DNA of 7,738 nt, from IMG/VR virus record IMGVR_UViG_2802429219_000018; one strand, written 5' to 3'. Both the position numbers and the translations under genes were made by a program. Source of the stretch: a virus (taxonomy: Duplodnaviria; Heunggongvirae; Uroviricota; Caudoviricetes). This document shows, piece by piece, positions 478 to 7,738 of the stretch (the stretch's first letter is position 1; every line of letters starts with the position of its first letter). The notes under the pieces are model-generated. The model was given only the letters and a program-made list of their open reading frames with translations, made no database searches and was not told the origin of the DNA.

Positions 478-2616
478 CTATTCATCCAGTTCATCATCCA
501 TAAGTAATGCATACGCTCTTAACTGCTTACCGTTCAGATGCTTTATTCTGGGTGTTCTTGTTTGCCACCCTTTACCACTTGAAGGGCGTTTAAGCATATT
601 TGCCCCATGAAGCACACTTGCAGCATGGTTTGCATCAAATCCACTTGCCACCTCGGCTTTAAAAACAGCCGGAAGAACATAAAAAGTTATAGCATCATCA
701 AGGTTTGATTTTCCTTTATTTTTATAACCAGCAAGGTTATGAATACTCATCTGGCTCAATTCATCAAAATCAACAGGTACAAAACGACTAATGCTATTTG
801 CTGTAAGAAATGATGTTGCCTGCTCAATAATCTGCTCGTTTTCCTTATTGCCTGTCCCGAACTCAGCCACCCATACATTAAAAACATGCTGTAACGCATC
901 TCGACACGCTAATGAGTCCCATCCAGTAATATGTTCAGAAAGCAGCATTGCACATTCCATAACTGCAAAACGATCCTTTACTCTATGAACTTGCTCGCCG
1001 TAATGTTGCGGAATAAGAGAATCCCATCGCTCTAACGCTCGTTTATAAGCCTCCTTCGCTTCCTGTTGATGATCTGCAAGCCATCTGATCCACTCACGAC
1101 CCGCCGCGCCATAATTTTCTTTCCATGCTGCTTCCAGTGCCTTCGCATGTTTCTCTCCATTTTCGTATCCATGAAATTCAGTTGGTCGAGATACAGGGAT
1201 ATTCAGTAATCTAACGAGCTGTCCAGCTTTTACTTTGATTCCTGCTCCAGCGAGAAAAGTTTCAATACTTTTCTCTCCTGTACTGATAACAACCGTTTCG
1301 AAATATTTAATTTCACGGTTCCCACCATCAGGACTTCCCTGTAATTTCCCTTTTCCATTAAAAAGAGTATAAGACGACGTAAATACACTTCTGGCACTGG
1401 AAGCCTGCTCTATTTCATCAAGAGCCAATAAACAGTGATTATGTGATTCTGCTTCGTTAGTTATACCCAACGCCGTTCCATACCAGGAAAGCCGTTGTTG
1501 TTTTGGAATTCCATACAGACTTGAGGCAAAATCTTCCGCAGTTGTTTTTCCCGCTGTACTTTGCGCATACAGATGCACACCAAAGCCATCAGCACCAATA
1601 ACACCAATCAGCGGGGCTGCCAGTGACGTAGCAGCCGCCAGCATCTGAAACGGGTTTTTATATGCCAATTTTGCAACATTCTCGCGCCAGCTTTCAGTAG
1701 TTCCTTTTACGCGATAAGCCAGCCTTGAGGCACTTCCTCCGGTAAACATAACTGGGGTTTCAGGCTCACCAATAACATCACCATTTGGCATGATGTAGAT
1801 GCCACCAAACCACCCGGAACGTTGTGTAGCCGTATACTGTAACCCTTTCTGAGCTTCATTCTGTATCCAGTCAGATAGAAGCTCTCTGGCCTTATTTTGT
1901 GTAGTAATTTTTAATCCCCAGTCTTTAAGGCGTGACCATCCCTGAGGGGTTCCAATCATTCCGGCTCTAATACAATGAGTAACCATTTCCCCCCTGAATT
2001 TCCAGCGTAAAGCAATAAACATTGCGTCATTTTCTCTATCAAATCCTTCGCCTAACACTTCCAGAGGTGAGCACATCCATTGACCATGGCGGGTTATCTC
2101 TCCTGAACGTTCAATTTTTGGGGTAACCCAGTACATACCTACTGGATCCGCATTTATACGCAATTCAACGTAAGGCGCCAGTTCATCGCGTGCCTGATTA
2201 CTTGCAGATTGCACAATATCCGTCATCGACACTTCTCCGCTCTCTACCTGTTCACGGATCCGTTGCAAGTAGTCGCGCCAGTTCTCCGGCTCCCGGTCGG
2301 TGATGCCTTTGTATAATTTCGCATCCTGTACGCCAGCCAGCGCCAGCTTTTCAGCAATAGCGTTGATCTGAATTGGCTCCATTTCCCCCGCGATATAAAC
2401 ACGCGCAAAGCGGCGCTCATCGTCAATAATGCGGATATTCGCCAGGTCTGCCAGTTGCTTTGGCCCCAGGTAAACAGGTGGTACGTTATCGCCGTGTTTT
2501 CGTCCTTCGCTTTCAATCCAGTGTTGAGCATGGGAGTAAGCGTCCGTCCCGGCAAAAATGATTACCTCGGTGAATTTATCCTTCGGCTGATATTTTAAAT
2601 TCGGTGCGTTTTTCAC
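478..2616 (-). CDS. Satellite replication initiator: primase/helicase-type protein with a DUF927-like core and a P-loop NTPase domain (712 aa)
   Basis: Long ORF with a GTG start preceded by GGAGG 6 nt upstream, and a 4-nt GTGA overlap with the upstream ORF's stop. The central segment GMYWVTPK...WMCSPLEVLGEGFDREN...FIALRWKF resembles the DUF927 core. Walker A-like AQSTAGKTT and Walker B-like CLLALDEIEQ are present. Cognate iterons follow the stop codon (TAG at 478-480). The family call is from memory, not from an HMM search. Confidence 0.9.
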   Translation of the reverse strand: MKNAPNLKYQPKDKFTEVIIFAGTDAYSHAQHWIESEGRKHGDNVPPVYLGPKQLADLANIRIIDDERRFARVYIAGEMEPIQINAIAEKLALAGVQDAKLYKGITDREPENWRDYLQRIREQVESGEVSMTDIVQSASNQARDELAPYVELRINADPVGMYWVTPKIERSGEITRHGQWMCSPLEVLGEGFDRENDAMFIALRWKFRGEMVTHCIRAGMIGTPQGWSRLKDWGLKITTQNKARELLSDWIQNEAQKGLQYTATQRSGWFGGIYIMPNGDVIGEPETPVMFTGGSASRLAYRVKGTTESWRENVAKLAYKNPFQMLAAATSLAAPLIGVIGADGFGVHLYAQSTAGKTTAEDFASSLYGIPKQQRLSWYGTALGITNEAESHNHCLLALDEIEQASSARSVFTSSYTLFNGKGKLQGSPDGGNREIKYFETVVISTGEKSIETFLAGAGIKVKAGQLVRLLNIPVSRPTEFHGYENGEKHAKALEAAWKENYGAAGREWIRWLADHQQEAKEAYKRALERWDSLIPQHYGEQVHRVKDRFAVMECAMLLSEHITGWDSLACRDALQHVFNVWVAEFGTGNKENEQIIEQATSFLTANSISRFVPVDFDELSQMSIHNLAGYKNKGKSNLDDAITFYVLPAVFKAEVASGFDANHAASVLHGANMLKRPSSGKGWQTRTPRIKHLNGKQLRAYALLMDDELDE

Positions 2617-2903
2617 TTCTTACCTCCCGCAACCAACATTGCCCGGATTTTTTTAATATTCGTGGCTGCACGTCTCGCCACCGCCTGTTGTTTGTTTTCC
2701 ACCAGAATAAAATCACGCTCAAACTGACGGCGCGGCATTACGCAGTCATATTCGTAAGCCTCACGGCGGTAGGTGATATTGCCTGGCGTAACGTGACGAA
2801 TAACCACTCGTCCCCCACGTCTGGTGTCGCGGTAAATATCTCCGTGTCTGATTTCAGGCCGAGAGAGACCGCTGGCAGTAAAGCCAGAATTTTTCTTTTT
2901 CAT
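2613..2903 (-). CDS. Small basic protein, 96 aa, function unknown (GDIYRD...VTPGNITYRREAYEYDCVMPRRQFERDF resembles DUF4222-type small phage proteins; unverified)
   Basis: ATG at 2903, 4 nt after the upstream ORF's stop. AGGA lies about 11 nt upstream. Its stop overlaps the primase GTG (GTGA). It sits in the same coupled operon. Confidence 0.65.
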   Translation of the reverse strand: MKKKNSGFTASGLSRPEIRHGDIYRDTRRGGRVVIRHVTPGNITYRREAYEYDCVMPRRQFERDFILVENKQQAVARRAATNIKKIRAMLVAGGKK

Positions 2904-2907
2904 GGTT

Positions 2908-3108
2908 TTATTTTCCTGTCAGCAGTTCCGGTTTTATTCCTGCACTAATACAGAGTTCAGAAAAGCCTTCTGCCGTACTTACAATTTCATTATTTCGCAG
3001 CCGGCATTGTGATTTCACTTTCCCTTTATCCAGGTAAACCAGTATGCGTCCGGTGAAATCCTCTGGCACATTCAGGGTAATTGTCATTGTTGCTGGCTTA
3101 TTACCCAT
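2908..3108 (-). CDS. Hypothetical 66-aa protein carrying one copy of an 'FTG' repeat domain
   Basis: The ATG overlaps the upstream stop as ATGGGTAA (3101-3108). A G8 run (complement of C8 at 3115-3122) sits 6 nt upstream and is SD-like. The domain FTGRILVYLDKGKVKSQCRLRNNEIVSTAEGFSELCISAG is paralogous to two segments of the upstream 122-aa ORF. An alternative start at M8 cannot be excluded. Confidence 0.6.
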   Translation of the reverse strand: MGNKPATMTITLNVPEDFTGRILVYLDKGKVKSQCRLRNNEIVSTAEGFSELCISAGIKPELLTGK

Positions 3109-3469
3109 GGTTCACCCCCCCCTGAATGACCTGATAACCGCAACTGGTCAGCAATTCGATAAATTCCGGCAGTGTGCCGAAACAGCAATCATCACGCAGC
3201 CGTTCGCGGGATACCTCGACGCCGTTTTCGTAGTGACTCACCATGCGTCCGGTAAAATGCAGATCATCATCGTGATGGCACGTTAACGGCTTAATCAGTC
3301 GCGCACGTTCCGCCAGTTCCAGCAATGCTTCAACGCTTCCGGCAATTGCACCATCCGGCAGGTGGTAATTACGCACTATGCGCCCGTTCTCCACATTGAC
3401 CAGCAACTGCCCGGTAAATTTCTCGTCAAACTGAATGCTGTTAAGGTCAGAAATTGACAGGTTATGCAT
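3101..3469 (-). CDS. Hypothetical 122-aa protein with two tandem copies of the 'FTG' repeat domain
   Basis: ATG at 3469 with GGAGG 6 nt upstream. It overlaps the upstream stop as ATGCATAA (3462-3469). The internal repeat is FTGQLLVNVENGRIV...GSVEALLELAERA (from aa 18) versus FTGRMVSHYENGVEV...GTLPEFIELLTSCG (from aa 72). Confidence 0.7.
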   Translation of the reverse strand: MHNLSISDLNSIQFDEKFTGQLLVNVENGRIVRNYHLPDGAIAGSVEALLELAERARLIKPLTCHHDDDLHFTGRMVSHYENGVEVSRERLRDDCCFGTLPEFIELLTSCGYQVIQGGVNHG

Positions 3470-3665
3470 GGTGCACCTCCTGGCGAATACGGGCAGCGAA
3501 TACCATCACGCAGCCATCAGGAGATTGCTGACGCGCTTCCTGTTCGCTGATGGCCTCGATGTGAATTACGCGCGGTTGTGCCGTACTCAGGGCGATAAAA
3601 CGCCAGATATATTTATTCAGGTTGTGCGAGTCCCGCCCTTGCGGGTGTGTGGTATGATTTCTCAT
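3462..3665 (-). CDS. Icd-like / Ash-like small protein, 67 aa (uses an internal start of the 331-aa track ORF)
   Basis: ATG at 3665 is preceded by GAGGT (3674..3670). The sequence MRNHTTHPQGRDSHNLNKYIWRFIALSTAQPRVIHIEAISEQEARQQSPDGCVMVFAARIRQEVHHA fits the pattern I recall for phage Icd-like proteins (aromatic-x-W/F-x-F-x-A ... A-x-SE-x-EAR ... F-A-A-R). It is the first gene of the coupled operon. The family call is from memory. Confidence 0.65.
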   Translation of the reverse strand: MRNHTTHPQGRDSHNLNKYIWRFIALSTAQPRVIHIEAISEQEARQQSPDGCVMVFAARIRQEVHHA

Positions 3666-3745
3666 AGCTACCTCGATACTGTTGCTATCGTTGGTGGTTA
3701 GAAGCCCGGTTAGTGTTAGCGCACTGCCGGGTTTCGTCGTTTTTA
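3665..3745 (+). ncRNA. Candidate ~80-nt cis-antisense RNA covering the SD/start of the Icd-like gene
   Basis: There is a plus-strand extended -10 (TG-g-TATGAT, 3650-3658) inside the Icd-like coding region, which predicts a start near 3665. The RNA has a 5' hairpin (cgata-ctgttgc-tatcg, 3674-3690) and then a plus-oriented terminator hairpin (3701-3735) with a U-rich tail to 3745. No plus-strand gene feeds this terminator. The start site and expression are untested. Confidence 0.35.
3701..3745 (+). terminator. Plus-strand-oriented intrinsic terminator-like hairpin in the leader region of the replication operon
   Basis: The stem pairs gaagcccggttagtg with cactgccgggtttc (14 pairs, one bulged U, 6-nt loop ttagcg), followed by gtcgttttta. 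Two of the pairs are G-U on the plus RNA (3704/3732 and 3711/3726) and would be C-A mismatches on the minus RNA. The U-rich tail exists only in the plus orientation. Confidence 0.45.
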
Positions 3746-3754
3746 TGAATCGAT

Positions 3755-3860
3755 CATTGTGAGATACATAGTCATCACAATGTGAGATATACATTATATT
3801 GTGGTGATATACATTGCAAGTGTTTTTATATCTCACTTTTGTGTATAGTGATATACACAT
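3755..3860. promoter_or_regulatory. Operator array and divergent promoter region between the RHH gene (+) and the Icd-like/primase operon (-)
   Basis: Five copies of GTGA(G)ATA(TA)CA: 3759-3770, 3782-3795, 3804-3815, an inverted copy at 3827-3836, and 3848-3860. They are phased at about 22 bp. An 8-bp inverted repeat CATTGTGA/TCACAATG lies at 3755-3762 and 3775-3782. A perfect minus-strand TATAAT (3798..3793) has a palindromic TTGCAA (3814-3819) 15 bp upstream. A plus-strand TATAGT lies at 3844-3849. The promoter assignments are tentative. Confidence 0.65.
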
Positions 3861-3879
3861 AACTAATTGGTGATTAACT

Positions 3880-4182
3880 ATGTCTGTATACAAAAATGCA
3901 AAATCGCAAATGACAACGATCAGGGTTCCCCACGATGTTATGGAGGGTATGGAATCCGTAAAACTGGACGGCGAAAGCAACGCCGGATTCATAGTAACCG
4001 CCATGCGTGGTGAGATCGCCCGCCGCCAGGCAGAAGGAAGAGGAGAAAATCCCCTGGTTTCTTCGCTCGATGCACTGGCGCAGGTGGAAAAAATCGGAGT
4101 CAAAGCAGCCGAGGAGATCGGGCAGCTCGTCACCGTCGCGCGTGAAGAACTCCAGCGCCGCAAGGCCAAAGAACAGGAGTAG
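3880..4182 (+). CDS. Ribbon-helix-helix-like small DNA-binding protein (YlcI/YnfO-like), 100 aa; candidate island repressor
   Basis: The N-terminal segment TTIRVPHDVMEGMESVKLDGESNAGFIVTAMRGEIARR has a strand-helix-helix pattern like the YlcI segment IRFPNQMIEQINIALEQKGSGNFSAWVIEACRRRL (from memory). The C-terminal half is charged and helical. It is the only plus-strand gene and sits next to the operator array. The antisense ORFs over it (3874-4200 and 3462-4457) are Ser/Cys-rich shadow-type sequence. Confidence 0.7.
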   Translation: MSVYKNAKSQMTTIRVPHDVMEGMESVKLDGESNAGFIVTAMRGEIARRQAEGRGENPLVSSLDALAQVEKIGVKAAEEIGQLVTVAREELQRRKAKEQE

Positions 4183-4457
4183 TTGATCAGCACCGGGCAA
4201 CCAGAAAAAATCGTATCAGTCGCGCTACCAGCAAAATTTTTTGCTTTCCGGACAGCGTGGCCAACGGCATTTTGCAGCAAAATATTCTGCATTTCTGGCG
4301 TGCTGTAGTAACGGTGATCAGCGCCTTCACATTGAACGAACTTGTCGCTAAAATTCACCCATATAGCAAACATCGCGGTGCTACAGGTAATTCGTTCACA
4401 AAGGCGCTCCGGCAACGGGGCGCTTTCTCTTTTTGTAACGGTCAGAGCGTTACACAT
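4183..4457 (-). other. 5' segment of the long minus-strand ORF: a translationally coupled start with no local stop codon
   Basis: The ATG at 4457 overlaps the ant-like stop as ATGTGTAA, with GGAGG 9 nt upstream. The first ~90 codons (MCNALTVTKRESAPLPERLCERITCSTAMFAIWVNFSDKFVQCEGADHRYYSTPEMQNILLQNAVGHAVRKAKNF...) look protein-like and have no competing gene. The frame stays open to 3462, so the 3' end is undefined. Confidence 0.3.
4401..4434 (+). terminator. Rho-independent terminator, plus-strand orientation, about 220 nt downstream of the RHH gene's stop
   Basis: aaggcgctccg-GCAA-cggggcgcttt forms an 11-bp stem (two G-U pairs on the plus RNA) with a GNRA tetraloop, followed by ctctttttg. 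The minus-strand equivalent has C-A mismatches and only a UUUGUG tail. Confidence 0.6.
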
Positions 4458-5250
4458 GGCTGTTTTCCTCCATGCGACGGGCTAACCAACGCTGCGAAAG
4501 ACGAATTAATTCAGCTTTCCGCTGGTGGTAGTCCTGGCCTAACTCAATCAGCGTGATATTGCTCTGCTCAAGGTAAGAAAGGTGCTCAAGCTGCAATGTG
4601 CTCATGTGGTCGCGTGGTTCGCCTGTGATGTCGTTCGCCTGCGCCCACTGTTTTGCAGTCATGCCACCCAGCACGATACGCGCCAGCATGTTCGCTTCCG
4701 TGGTGTAGTGGTGCTGGAGTGTGTTTTTACCCAGTTCAGCCCGGTACGCCTCCAGCGCGGCACACATTGGCTTAAAGTAGCTGGCAACTGTGATACGGGC
4801 TTTCAGTTCCCGGCGTAACGCTGCGGAACGCACTGGCGCTACCTTGTGTAGCTCCTCCTCGCATTTGATGAAGTACTGACGAACGGCGCGGCCCTGTTCG
4901 GTGCGTTCGACCATCGCCAGTTCTTTCGCCATGTTGATAGTGCTCAGGTAGTCGTGCTCTATACGTTGGCGAGATTTTGCGCTCACCGGATTGGGGGAGG
5001 TCAAATTTTCTACGAATTCAAAATCCACGCCCTTTTTAAATCCGTACTCATCAATGCGTCCTTTAATCCAGGTTGTGAAATCACGGCCTACCCCGAGCGC
5101 CTTATGCAACGCTCTGGCGCTAACAATATTGGTTTCACGCCCGCCAATAACGCCGGAAATAACCGGGATAATTTCGCCAAAATTTTGCAGATTCTGGTTT
5201 TCAGGCCGAACGAAGCCCTGCCCCTGTACGGGCGTTTTTGGAAATTTCAT
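4450..5250 (-). CDS. AntA/AntB-family phage antirepressor homolog, 266 aa
   Basis: ATG at 5250 with AGGAG 5 nt upstream. The N-terminal half (VSARALHKALGVGRDFTTWIKGRIDEYGFKKGVDF...INMAKELAMVERTEQGRAVRQYFIKCEEEL) matches the AntA domain pattern. The C-terminal half is helical and of uncertain family. Confidence 0.85.
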   Translation of the reverse strand: MKFPKTPVQGQGFVRPENQNLQNFGEIIPVISGVIGGRETNIVSARALHKALGVGRDFTTWIKGRIDEYGFKKGVDFEFVENLTSPNPVSAKSRQRIEHDYLSTINMAKELAMVERTEQGRAVRQYFIKCEEELHKVAPVRSAALRRELKARITVASYFKPMCAALEAYRAELGKNTLQHHYTTEANMLARIVLGGMTAKQWAQANDITGEPRDHMSTLQLEHLSYLEQSNITLIELGQDYHQRKAELIRLSQRWLARRMEENSHV

Positions 5251-5327: not shown

Positions 5328-5525
5328 TCAGGTAGCTGTTCCGCGTGATTCCGCAATACGCTGATTAATCCACTCGTCAATTTCACTCTCAACGAAAGCA
5401 ATCGCTCGCGAGCCAATTTTTACAGGTTTAGGAAAACGCCCTTGGGCAATGAGTTTATAGATCCATGCCCTGCCATAGCCTGTACGGCGCATGGTTTCTG
5501 GCATACGAATTAAAGATTGTGACAT
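5328..5525 (-). CDS. alpA: AlpA-family (excisionase-like HTH) transcriptional regulator, 65 aa
   Basis: MSQSLIRMPETMRRTGYGRAWIYKLIAQGRFPKPVKIGSRAIAFVESEIDEWI is the classic AlpA/Phage_AlpA signature. I chose the internal ATG at 5525 (GGGAGA about 8 nt upstream) over the track start at 5594, because that start lies inside the palindromic operator. Confidence 0.85.
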   Translation of the reverse strand: MSQSLIRMPETMRRTGYGRAWIYKLIAQGRFPKPVKIGSRAIAFVESEIDEWINQRIAESRGTAT

Positions 5526-5590
5526 GATAATCGTCTCCCGTTGTTTATTGATGCCTACGGGAGACATTGAAGCAGGTAAGACATTGGATA

Positions 5591-5629
5591 TCACCGCAAT
5601 TGCGGTGAATGATACCGCAATTGCGGTAT
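5591..5629. promoter_or_regulatory. Twin 18-bp perfect palindromes (core ACCGCAATTGCGGT) upstream of alpA; putative dimer-binding operators
   Basis: TCACCGCAATTGCGGTGA (5591-5608) and ATACCGCAATTGCGGTAT (5612-5629) are each perfectly self-complementary. Their centres are exactly 21 bp apart. They lie between the 251-aa gene's stop (5640) and the alpA start (5525). Confidence 0.7.
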
Positions 5630-6395: not shown

Positions 6396-6523
6396 TCTGT
6401 GCTACCTCGCACCCTCTGTAAAAGTGGCTGTGCCAGCCCGCAGAGGTGTACGGGTTTTCAGGAGCGACCCTAGACACAGCCTTTTCTTAATCGCTCAAAG
6501 TCTACTACTGTATACTCAACCAG

Positions 6524-7738
6524 TCACCCGCATTTTCCGAACTCACCATGCACCACATTTCCGCCATGCTCGAGCGAATCCATATAATCGGCGTACCACT
6601 GAAGCATTTCCCGCCGTCCATCCAGATATTGCGCATGGTTGTATGTGCCACGAATTGAGTTTTTATCGACGTGTGCGAGCTGCGTCTCTATCCATGCGGT
6701 GTTATAGCCCTGCTCATGCAAAATGGTGCTCATGGTGTGCCGGAATCCATGACCAGTAACCTTTCCGTTATAGCCGATGCGTTTAAATACTTGGTTTATG
6801 CTAGCCTCGCTCATTGTTTTCCTTGGATCATTACGGCCGGGAAACATAAGCGGATAATTGCCAGTTAATTCTTTAATCTGCCCAATAAGAGAAAGAGCCT
6901 GCTTAGACAAAGGCACCACATGAGGGCGACGCATTTTCATCCGTGAAGCAGGTATCTCCCAGATAGCCTTGTTGAGATCGATTTCATCCCATAATGCACC
7001 GCGCAGTTCGCCAGTTCGCAAACCAGTGATAATCAGTAGACGAGCCGCCATAACAACCAATGCACTTCCTGAGTAACTGGACAATGCCTTGAAAAAATCA
7101 GGCAATTCTTTGGCTGTGAGGAAAGGATAATGATTAGATTCATGGCCTTGCATCGCGCTAGTAAGATCTGGGGCAGGGTTATACTCTGCGCGACCAGTGA
7201 CTATTGCATAGCGGAAAACTTCCCCACACCGCTGCCTCACTTTTTTGGCTTTTTCTGTAGCACCGCGCCCCTCGATGCGTCGCAGCACATTCAGAAGTTC
7301 AAGTGGTTTGATTTCGGCGATTGGTTTTTTGCCAATGTAAGGGAACACATCTTTGTTGAAGGCTTCGAGGATGTCTGAAGCATAACCAGCAGACCATTTT
7401 TTTAATTTGCTGCTGTGCCACTCAAGGGCAATATCTTTGAAGGTGTTGTTTAACTGCGTTTCCCGGGCAATCTTTTCCTCTCGTTTCGCTTCCATCGGAT
7501 CGATACCCCCAGCGATACCCCTTTTAGCTTCTTCACGTTTTGCACGAGCATCAGCCAAGGTAACTTCAGGATACACACCTAGTGCTAACAGCTTCTCTTT
7601 ACCAGCTACACGATACTTGAAGCGCCAATATTTTCCTCCACTAGGTTTTACCAAGAGATACAGACCACCACCATCAGCCAGCTTGTAAGCCTTCTCTTTT
7701 GGCTTGGCAGTGTCTATTTGACGGGCATTGAGTTTCAC
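6524..7738 (-). CDS. int: P4-type (DUF4102 N-terminal arm) tyrosine integrase, 404 aa as read; 5' end coincides with the window edge
   Basis: The N-terminus ARQIDTAKPKEKAYKLADGGGLYLLVKPSGGKYWRFKYR is typical of the P4/CP4 integrase family. Catalytic motifs are TGLRTGELR, GHGFRHT and RGTYNHAQY, and GEVFRYAIVTGRAEYNPAPDL is shared with IntS-like integrases. The first codon in the window is GTG. The true start may be here or a few codons beyond the window. Confidence 0.9.
   Translation of the reverse strand: MKLNARQIDTAKPKEKAYKLADGGGLYLLVKPSGGKYWRFKYRVAGKEKLLALGVYPEVTLADARAKREEAKRGIAGGIDPMEAKREEKIARETQLNNTFKDIALEWHSSKLKKWSAGYASDILEAFNKDVFPYIGKKPIAEIKPLELLNVLRRIEGRGATEKAKKVRQRCGEVFRYAIVTGRAEYNPAPDLTSAMQGHESNHYPFLTAKELPDFFKALSSYSGSALVVMAARLLIITGLRTGELRGALWDEIDLNKAIWEIPASRMKMRRPHVVPLSKQALSLIGQIKELTGNYPLMFPGRNDPRKTMSEASINQVFKRIGYNGKVTGHGFRHTMSTILHEQGYNTAWIETQLAHVDKNSIRGTYNHAQYLDGRREMLQWYADYMDSLEHGGNVVHGEFGKCG

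Follow-up and report, generated by a model that had tools for sequence, protein, structure and literature searches.

The 7,738-nt stretch of viral DNA analysed here (the window; Caudoviricetes, IMG/VR record IMGVR_UViG_2802429219_000018) very probably encodes a small structured RNA on the strand opposite the first gene of a replication operon. This gene, here called icd, encodes an Icd-like protein and heads a chain of open reading frames (ORFs) that ends in a DUF927 primase-helicase. The best explanation of the data, to which we assign a probability of about 0.72, is that a plus-strand antisense RNA of ~75–80 nt, related to SymR of Escherichia coli, represses translation of icd and lowers expression of the replication genes chained to it. 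By analogy with SymR, its function would most likely be cis-antisense translational repression. A preliminary description of the window had proposed a cis-antisense RNA with two hairpins and a promoter inside the Icd-like ORF. Hairpin covariation, a conserved -10 element and reciprocal matches to SymR bear this proposal out; the SymR relationship was absent from that description.

We compared the RNA interval among 80 IMG/VR loci, one Edwardsiella locus (the single locus returned by a profile search of genome contigs with the Icd-like alignment) and the window, which together gave 50 distinct versions of the interval. Across these 50 variants, 95.5% of the cells of the two-hairpin structure were paired, compared with 35–52% when the partners were slid by 1–3 columns. 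Hairpin 1 paired in 99% of cells, with G·U at 3667·3698 in 50/50 variants and U·G at 3669·3696 in 45/50, and 11 of its 12 pairs showed compensatory change across the subfamilies described below. Its loop was hypervariable: 17 different loops were found among 80 variants, with a loop entropy of 0.85 versus 0.00 at most of the flanking stem positions. Hairpin 2 occurred as 27 distinct sequences and had changes on both sides in 10 of its 14 pairs, so that covariation in homologous islands, a check set beforehand, came out in favour of the proposed RNA. Part of the region was present in 1245 of 5426 complete E. coli genomes. In many of these genomes, conservation began at the end of icd and ceased at ~3742, where hairpin 2 has its foot; the regulatory modules beyond this point were unrelated. 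Nissle 1917 is one of the E. coli strains with a related copy.

The strand test was decisive. The 50 variants contained 200 G·U cells versus 2 A·C cells, and the plus-strand fold was the more stable one in 50/50 variants, by a mean of 12.9 kcal/mol. Because G·U pairs turn into A·C mismatches on the other strand, these data argue that the structure was selected in plus-strand RNA rather than in icd mRNA or in DNA. Homologous islands thus keep the structure on the plus and not on the minus strand, and they also keep the -10, as the preliminary description had required. The same asymmetry bears on the idea of a sense-strand function for the structure, whether as a hairpin in the icd operon leader that stabilises the mRNA or causes attenuation, or as a processed same-strand immunity RNA of the P4 CI or P1 C4 kind. 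The hairpins do lie within the presumed 5' untranslated region, weaker mirror hairpins are predicted in the mRNA, and C4/IsrK-type RNAs have been reported in phage-inducible chromosomal islands of Gram-negative bacteria (GN-PICIs; PMC10111431). However, besides the G·U excess, the minus-strand fold was weaker in 50/50 island variants and in 33/33 members of the wider family, no Rfam match to C4, IsrK or sar was obtained at E ≤ 1, and a covariance model built from the island variants (model R1, below) reached only 8.3 bits on the minus strand. We regard the sense-strand idea as extremely unlikely, and its P4 CI-like version was rejected on the asymmetry.

It is also very improbable that the region works by transcriptional interference or as a DNA-level element, such as a cruciform or a protein-binding site, and not by RNA pairing. 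Two predicted convergent promoters ~130 bp apart and an invariant GC inverted repeat at 3632–3645 would suit such an arrangement, but compensatory changes that tolerate G·U and not A·C point to selection on the single-stranded RNA of one strand, and SymR represses its target in trans (PMC1891008).

The predicted RNA is tightly folded. The plus strand at 3665–3746 folded with -37.2 kcal/mol (z = -5.64), and 0/200 shuffled sequences were as stable, whereas the complementary strand reached only -20.5 kcal/mol (z = -2.46). The mirror hairpins of the mRNA are predicted to be much weaker than the plus-strand hairpins because of A·C mismatches; the antisense RNA would therefore be tightly folded and its target more open. 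Hairpin 2 (~-22 kcal/mol) is followed in the window by U5 after a 4-nt spacer, and its motif GTGTTNGCGCACNNCCG is also found in SymR and in the Arsenophonus and Salmonella relatives. The coordinates previously given for this hairpin, its U-rich tail, the Shine-Dalgarno sequence (SD) and the start codon were confirmed (Table 1). Two details changed: hairpin 2 has three G·U pairs (3704·3732, 3710·3726 and 3716·3721) and not two, with two further G·U pairs in hairpin 1, and it begins 35 nt, not ~45 nt, after a +1 at A3666. This A3666 is the best-supported 5' end, judged from the spacing to the -10 and from the register with the annotated 5' end of SymR.

We next asked how the RNA relates to known families. 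A cmscan of the whole window, both strands, against all 4227 families of Rfam 15 at E ≤ 1 gave a single match in the interval, SymR (RF01809), at 3666–3738 on the plus strand, which covered the full model (1–77) with 32.9 bits and E = 0.0028, a significant match for this search but one short of the curated gathering score of 61. For the reverse comparison, we used covariance models built from the 50 island variants (R1) and from 33 diverse members of the family, SymR not among them (R2). Model R1 returned K-12 symR as its best foreign match (19.2 bits, E = 2.7e-4), and R2 matched K-12 symR with 38.9 bits and E = 1.1e-8. Both matches fell at L001 2836–2916 on the plus strand, where 2836 is the annotated +1 of SymR. 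Relatives of the window RNA scored 25–42.5 bits against the Rfam SymR model.

The two RNAs resemble each other in anatomy as well. SymR (RyjC, from the E. coli symE/symR locus) matches the predicted window RNA in having two hairpins, a length of ~77 nt and a similar fold energy. The initial codons of its target ORF contain the promoter, whose -10 is placed seven nt from +1, and it is transcribed opposite the SD and leader of that target, a layout that is predicted from sequence for the window RNA too. The patches UGUGAUUAG / UGGUGGUUAG and the GUGUUnGCGCAC loop are common to both. They differ in that the start codon is at +4 to +6 in SymR and just outside the window RNA, that only the window RNA has a U-rich tail, and that SymR controls the AbrB-fold protein SymE whereas the window RNA faces an Icd-like protein heading an island replication operon. 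The Icd-like product had no Pfam match at all, which leaves it with no domain of the AbrB-fold or SymE kind. SymR itself, a discrete RNA of 77 nt, is expressed constitutively at ~10-fold excess over its target; it acts in trans, with Hfq and RNase III dispensable, and represses SymE protein more than sevenfold and the mRNA only about threefold (PMC1891008). Its promoter lies inside symE, and a -10 mutation abolishes SymR and raises SymE more than sevenfold (PMC1891008). These comparisons support the view that the window RNA is a distant member of the SymR family, placed in a new context.

The extended -10 described earlier within the Icd-like ORF was found as described. Among 80 distinct island variants, G3651, T3653, A3654, T3655 and T3658 were invariant and T3650 had an entropy of 0.17, while the spacer base 3652, the -9 base 3656 and the discriminator bases 3661–3662 varied. 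Third-position entropy was 0.07 in icd codons 2–14 versus 0.48 in codons 15–66, and the third positions of codons 2–11 were nearly invariant; part of this low-entropy stretch had served to select the sequences, and codons 7–11, outside the anchor, were invariant too. Where the peptide differs, the hexamer was kept or improved (TGaTATAAT over MKDYIT; TATAGT over MRNYT in Arsenophonus), and relatives at Bro-N genes had TGcTACAAT or TGaTACACT at this position. TAnnnT at the right spacing occurred in 28 of 29 distinct upstream contexts (16/17 and 7/7 in two subfamilies, plus five recognisable b-type sites), versus ~8% of chance sites, an ad hoc background made up of chance sites struck by the loose subfamily b expression AGCCATRRY. 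In a pairwise alignment, the -10 aligned column for column with the TAGAAT of SymR, both of them seven nt from +1. As had been stated, no plus-strand gene lies upstream of the RNA: the lone plus-strand ORF there is an unsupported one of 88 aa (3435..3701), antisense to icd.

Two small repeats adjoin this promoter. An invariant GC hairpin, CCCGC-CCTT-GCGGG (3632–3645; icd codons 7–12), lies just upstream of the -10, and entropy was ~0 over 3633–3648 in the 80 variants. Subfamilies b and c lack this hairpin, which might bind a regulator of the antisense promoter or form a structure within the mRNA. In addition, the -10 and the start codon together form a small inverted repeat, TATGA-TTTC-TCATA (3651–3665), so the AUG of the mRNA would lie within a weak 5-bp hairpin.

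Table 1 Features of the window, with positions counted from its first nucleotide
Feature	Position	Strand	Remarks
Antisense RNA, SymR-like, ~75–80 nt, predicted	3666..3745	+	Rfam SymR match 3666–3738; R1 and R2 matches 3666–3742
Hairpin 1	3666–3699 (or 3665–3700)	+	Invariant stems, carry anti-SD ACCUC; hypervariable 7-nt loop 3679–3685
Hairpin 2	3701–3735	+	Possible terminator or stability hairpin; loop motif GUGUUAGCGCAC common with SymR
U-rich tail GUCGUUUUUAU	3736..3745	+	Follows hairpin 2
Target signal CAT	3663–3665	+	Complement of start codon
Target signal ACCTC	3670–3674	+	Complement of SD GAGGT (3674..3670)
Extended -10 TGGTATGAT (TGgTATGAT)	3650–3658	+	Within codons 3–6 of Icd-like ORF
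Icd-like ORF, 67 codons	3665..3462	-	NCBIfam NF033153, 68.4 bits versus cut-off 25
orf122	3469..3101	-	
orf66	3108..2908	-	
DUF4222 gene	2903..2613	-	Pfam
DUF927 primase-helicase	2616..478	-	Pfam
Candidate icd operon promoter	3793..3819	-	TTGCAA (3819..3814), 15-nt spacer, TATAAT (3798..3793); read from sequence
YlcI/YnfO family gene	3880–4182	+	Diverges from icd operon across repeat-filled spacer
AntA-like gene	5250..4450	-	
alpA	5594..5328	-	
251-aa ORF	In window, listed between int-alpA motif and alpA	-	
int-alpA RNA motif	6480..6412	-	Between integrase and next ORF; Rfam RF02996, 49.8 bits versus gathering score 35.8
Integrase	7738..6524	-	

The 3' end of the RNA is uncertain and would fall somewhere in 3735–3745. 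Hairpin 2 may terminate transcription. At least five T in the 10 nt after it were found in 41 of 55 related contexts. A weak U tract in most relatives makes read-through plausible, and this bears on whether the plus-strand promoter mainly serves the YlcI/YnfO gene. In that case the two hairpins would form the leader of this gene, hairpin 2 would serve as attenuator and the antisense overlap would be a by-product. A divergent regulator-like gene follows the RNA on the plus strand in the window, Edwardsiella, Arsenophonus and the Salmonella plasmid, and a consensus promoter scan found none for the gene at 3880. However, conservation does not extend past the foot of hairpin 2, and the regulator modules beyond it differ, so that the RNA is tied to no single gene, and the constant feature is its position over the ribosome-binding site (RBS) of the opposite-strand gene. 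The SymR locus, moreover, has no downstream gene of the YlcI/YnfO kind, and SymR is a discrete RNA (PMC1891008). We consider such a leader role improbable.

Several observations weigh against a SymR-like antisense RNA in the window. The evidence is sequence evidence throughout, and transcription of the RNA from the plus strand is what we infer from it. No -35 is recognisable, and the consensus promoter scan was silent in the RNA interval; we ascribe this silence to strict criteria applied to a region with no -35, and do not take it to mean that a promoter is absent. By itself, the -10 motif is no commoner than chance predicts, with one match in the window versus 1.24 expected, and was dropped as stand-alone evidence. 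Similarly, a simple terminator scan made no call at hairpin 2; we ascribe this to strict criteria faced with a bulged stem and do not read the result as absence of a terminator. Only 12 of the 55 related contexts have four or more consecutive T after hairpin 2; the U tract is mostly U3 in relatives, there is none in Arsenophonus, and K-12 SymR ends without a U run. Because the tract is short in most relatives, both the 3' end and the efficiency of termination are uncertain. The RNA had been described as fully complementary to the SD, the start codon and the leader of icd; this holds for the SD and leader, but with +1 at 3666 the RNA probably stops one base short of the start codon and leaves it uncovered. 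The SymR score lies well under the curated gathering score, and the coupling to the primase rests on gene overlaps only. Finally, the covariation score was reached by 0/500 shuffles, a control that overstates significance since the sequences are mutually related; the slid-partner control and the G·U versus A·C asymmetry are free of this weakness of kinship. Because the -10 motif and the scans alone are insufficient, the significance of the finding rests on the fold z-score, the E-value of the Rfam SymR match, and conservation with covariation.

The antisense RNA could act as follows. Transcription would initiate from the extended -10 in the first icd codons, start at about A3666 and yield an RNA that folds into two hairpins and is perfectly complementary to the SD (3674..3670) and to the last ~75–80 nt of the icd mRNA leader. 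In excess, the RNA would pair with this leader and block ribosome binding, with destabilisation of the mRNA as a lesser effect. Leaky transcripts of the repressed operon would then give no Icd-like protein, and the RNA would be out-titrated once the operon promoter is strongly induced. A block of icd translation should in turn lower expression of the replication genes, via lost translational coupling, Rho-dependent polarity or both, a behaviour described for C4/icd/ant in phage P1. The genes from icd to the primase (478..3469 plus the Icd-like ORF) are tightly packed, with the junctions previously noted: overlaps of 8, 8 and 4 nt and one 4-nt gap. From these overlapping or near-abutting ORFs and the precedent of P1, we infer coupling as far as the primase-helicase.

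The same mechanism could serve a different purpose, namely a type I toxin-antitoxin pair in which the RNA is chiefly the antitoxin of a toxic Icd-like division inhibitor, the pair stabilises the island and replication control is incidental. SymR is classed as a type I antitoxin (PMC4147584), homologues of the Icd-like ORF carry the annotation 'host cell division inhibitor Icd-like protein', and the RNA and the 5' end of icd form one conserved block. Yet the toxicity of the 67-aa protein is putative, with its division-inhibitor annotation based on homology alone; icd is the first gene of a compact operon whose last gene is the primase; and the Bro-N antirepressor-like genes that some relatives of the RNA guard are regulators, not toxins. 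A toxin-antitoxin pair is therefore unlikely, though it deserves to be taken seriously, and the mechanism would be the one set out above, with the difference lying in purpose.

Repression of a leader gene by the window RNA has parallels in other systems. The comparison with P22 sar/ant in immI, drawn in the preliminary description, proved apt: in an early or anti-immunity operon there, too, the regulated gene that comes first has its RBS covered by a short cis-antisense RNA, and subfamily c relatives lie between a small ribbon-helix-helix (RHH)-like ORF and a Bro-N antirepressor-like gene. The layout in locus L084 resembles arc-sar-ant, an order in P22 that we take to be comparable to the subfamily c arrangement. 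P22 differs in that ant is an antirepressor, whereas the window target is Icd-like. No match to sar was found in the cmscan, where int-alpA and SymR were the only families reported; the presence of a sar model in the library is unconfirmed. In P1 and P7, the C4 RNA reportedly pairs with the icd RBS and shuts off the downstream gene, as Biere et al. in 1992 and Riedel et al. in 1993 are said to have found. C4 and P4 CI thus resemble the window in that a small icd-type leader gene is RNA-controlled at its RBS and gates downstream genes. In contrast to the window RNA, which is encoded on the opposite strand and fully complementary, C4 and CI are same-strand RNAs that are processed from the operon transcript and pair through short loops. 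The window had been set apart from these same-strand RNAs beforehand, and neither C4 nor IsrK gave an Rfam match in it on either strand at E ≤ 1. In the CopA/tap/repA system of plasmid R1, translation of a short leader ORF, coupled to that of a replication gene, is blocked by an antisense RNA, as would be the case in the window, and in both RNAs the loops are likely the first contact points. This is a functional analogy only: no sequence relationship between CopA and the window RNA was found, and R1 has one leader peptide followed by repA whereas the window chain has four ORFs up to the primase-helicase.

Having placed the window RNA close to SymR, we further explored its relatives. A scan for the shared loop motif, followed by filtering with the model, yielded a family with three subfamilies. 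Subfamily a, the window type, lies over Icd-like genes whose products start MRNHTT. Subfamily b starts with AGCCAU (AGUCAU in SymR), lies over other Icd-like genes with CAT at +4 to +6, and reaches up to 42.5 bits against Rfam SymR. Subfamily c lies over the RBS of Bro-N antirepressor-like genes, and in the Salmonella phage-plasmid examined it is found downstream of the small RHH-like ORF. Further members lie opposite unrelated genes. Across the whole family, 25 of 26 pairs covaried in an alignment that was fitted to the model and so favours the structure; G·U cells numbered 114 versus 5 A·C cells, and the RNA strand was the more stable in 33/33 members. A search of a phage collection left the RNA unmatched and gave only a weak match to part of icd.

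Individual loci added further observations. In plasmid pCFSAN000669_2 of Salmonella Bareilly (L084 1972–2206), the BRO family gene (locus 2055) probably has its annotated start placed too far upstream, since ATG 1972 with an AGGAAAT SD fits better; the SymR-like RNA begins right at ATG 1972. In pArsFIN15 of Arsenophonus nasoniae (L083 2300–2514, minus strand), an unannotated ORF of ~68 aa (MRNYTELSS...) lies opposite a copy of the RNA that scores 71 bits with model R1, and conservation is far higher in the RNA than in the protein. Some islands carry two SymR-like RNAs ~750–800 bp apart (L100 9685–9761 and 10471–10547; L024 1424–1500 and 679–756), and in L100 each lies over its own Icd-like ORF. 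Some related islands also encode a ~176-aa ProQ/FinO-domain protein (L207 4400–4930; L205 7278..7808; also L094, L100, L102, L172 and L188); in L207 the gene lies ~0.7 kb past the primase stop, outside the window, and it is not present in all relatives. This protein might serve the structured antisense RNA as a chaperone. It was not adopted as part of the mechanism because it is found only in some related loci, and literature support for a link between ProQ and SymR was not found, the top-ranked of the papers naming both having SymR solely in its reference list.

A broader idea, which is speculative and on balance doubtful, is that SymR is one domesticated member of a large, so far unrecognised family of cis-antisense 'gatekeeper' RNAs, each lying over the gene that opens an early or replication operon of an integrative satellite or phage-plasmid. 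In the islands, frozen stems and hypervariable loops, with 17 versions of the hairpin-1 loop and 27 of hairpin 2, would then define specificity classes, and action in trans on co-resident or incoming islands would amount to satellite immunity or incompatibility, perhaps assisted by the ProQ/FinO protein.

The window belongs to an integrative island of the NCBI genome assembly GCA_002965785.1, beside proA; the closest E. coli island lies at a tRNA-Thr at the same proA site. Nearly all of its genes are on the minus strand, and an integrase gene, int-alpA RNA, alpA, an AntA-like gene and a DUF927 primase are present. The window ends after the primase, and in the related island L205 the genes past the primase are mostly hypothetical and have no packaging or capsid annotation; the label 'PICI-type' is unproven. 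Between the icd operon and the YlcI/YnfO family gene, at 3755–3862, direct and inverted copies of GTGAGATATACA / TGTATATCTCAC are found, which are probably operators of the island's repressor; other islands have different repeats at this site, for example CACCTTG...CAAGGTG. The candidate icd operon promoter overlaps the operator-like repeats GTGAGATATACA; the promoter scan was silent on it because of the 15-nt spacer. Transcription from it would give a leader of ~120 nt that holds the whole antisense target. The Icd-like frame itself stays open for 331 codons upstream (3462–4457, minus strand), and for this reason many Icd-like proteins in databases, at 95–117 aa, carry false N-terminal extensions through the RNA region.

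Cis-antisense control at the RBS, SymR, sar/ant and C4/icd are already known, and the principle is not new. In the full-text literature, with incomplete coverage, we came upon no cis-antisense RNA, SymR-like or otherwise, that had been described over Icd-like genes or from PICI- or P4-like islands, and the GN-PICI paper mentions only C4/IsrK-type RNAs (PMC10111431). What appears to be new is a relative of SymR placed to guard the Icd-like gene that leads an island's replication operon, the abundance of a SymR-like RNA in E. coli, and the link of SymR to a wider RNA family of mobile elements.

The regulation of such islands is usually ascribed to protein repressors, AlpA and C4/CI-type RNAs. 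An antisense RNA over icd would give integrase/AlpA/primase islands, which were found in about a quarter of the complete E. coli genomes searched (1245/5426), a further safeguard at the RNA level. It would also tie the isolated chromosomal SymR/SymE pair to antisense RNAs of mobile elements that lie over Icd-like, Bro-N antirepressor-like and other genes. The wider family may thus bear on the origin of SymR, and its variable loops would offer a natural test of antisense specificity.

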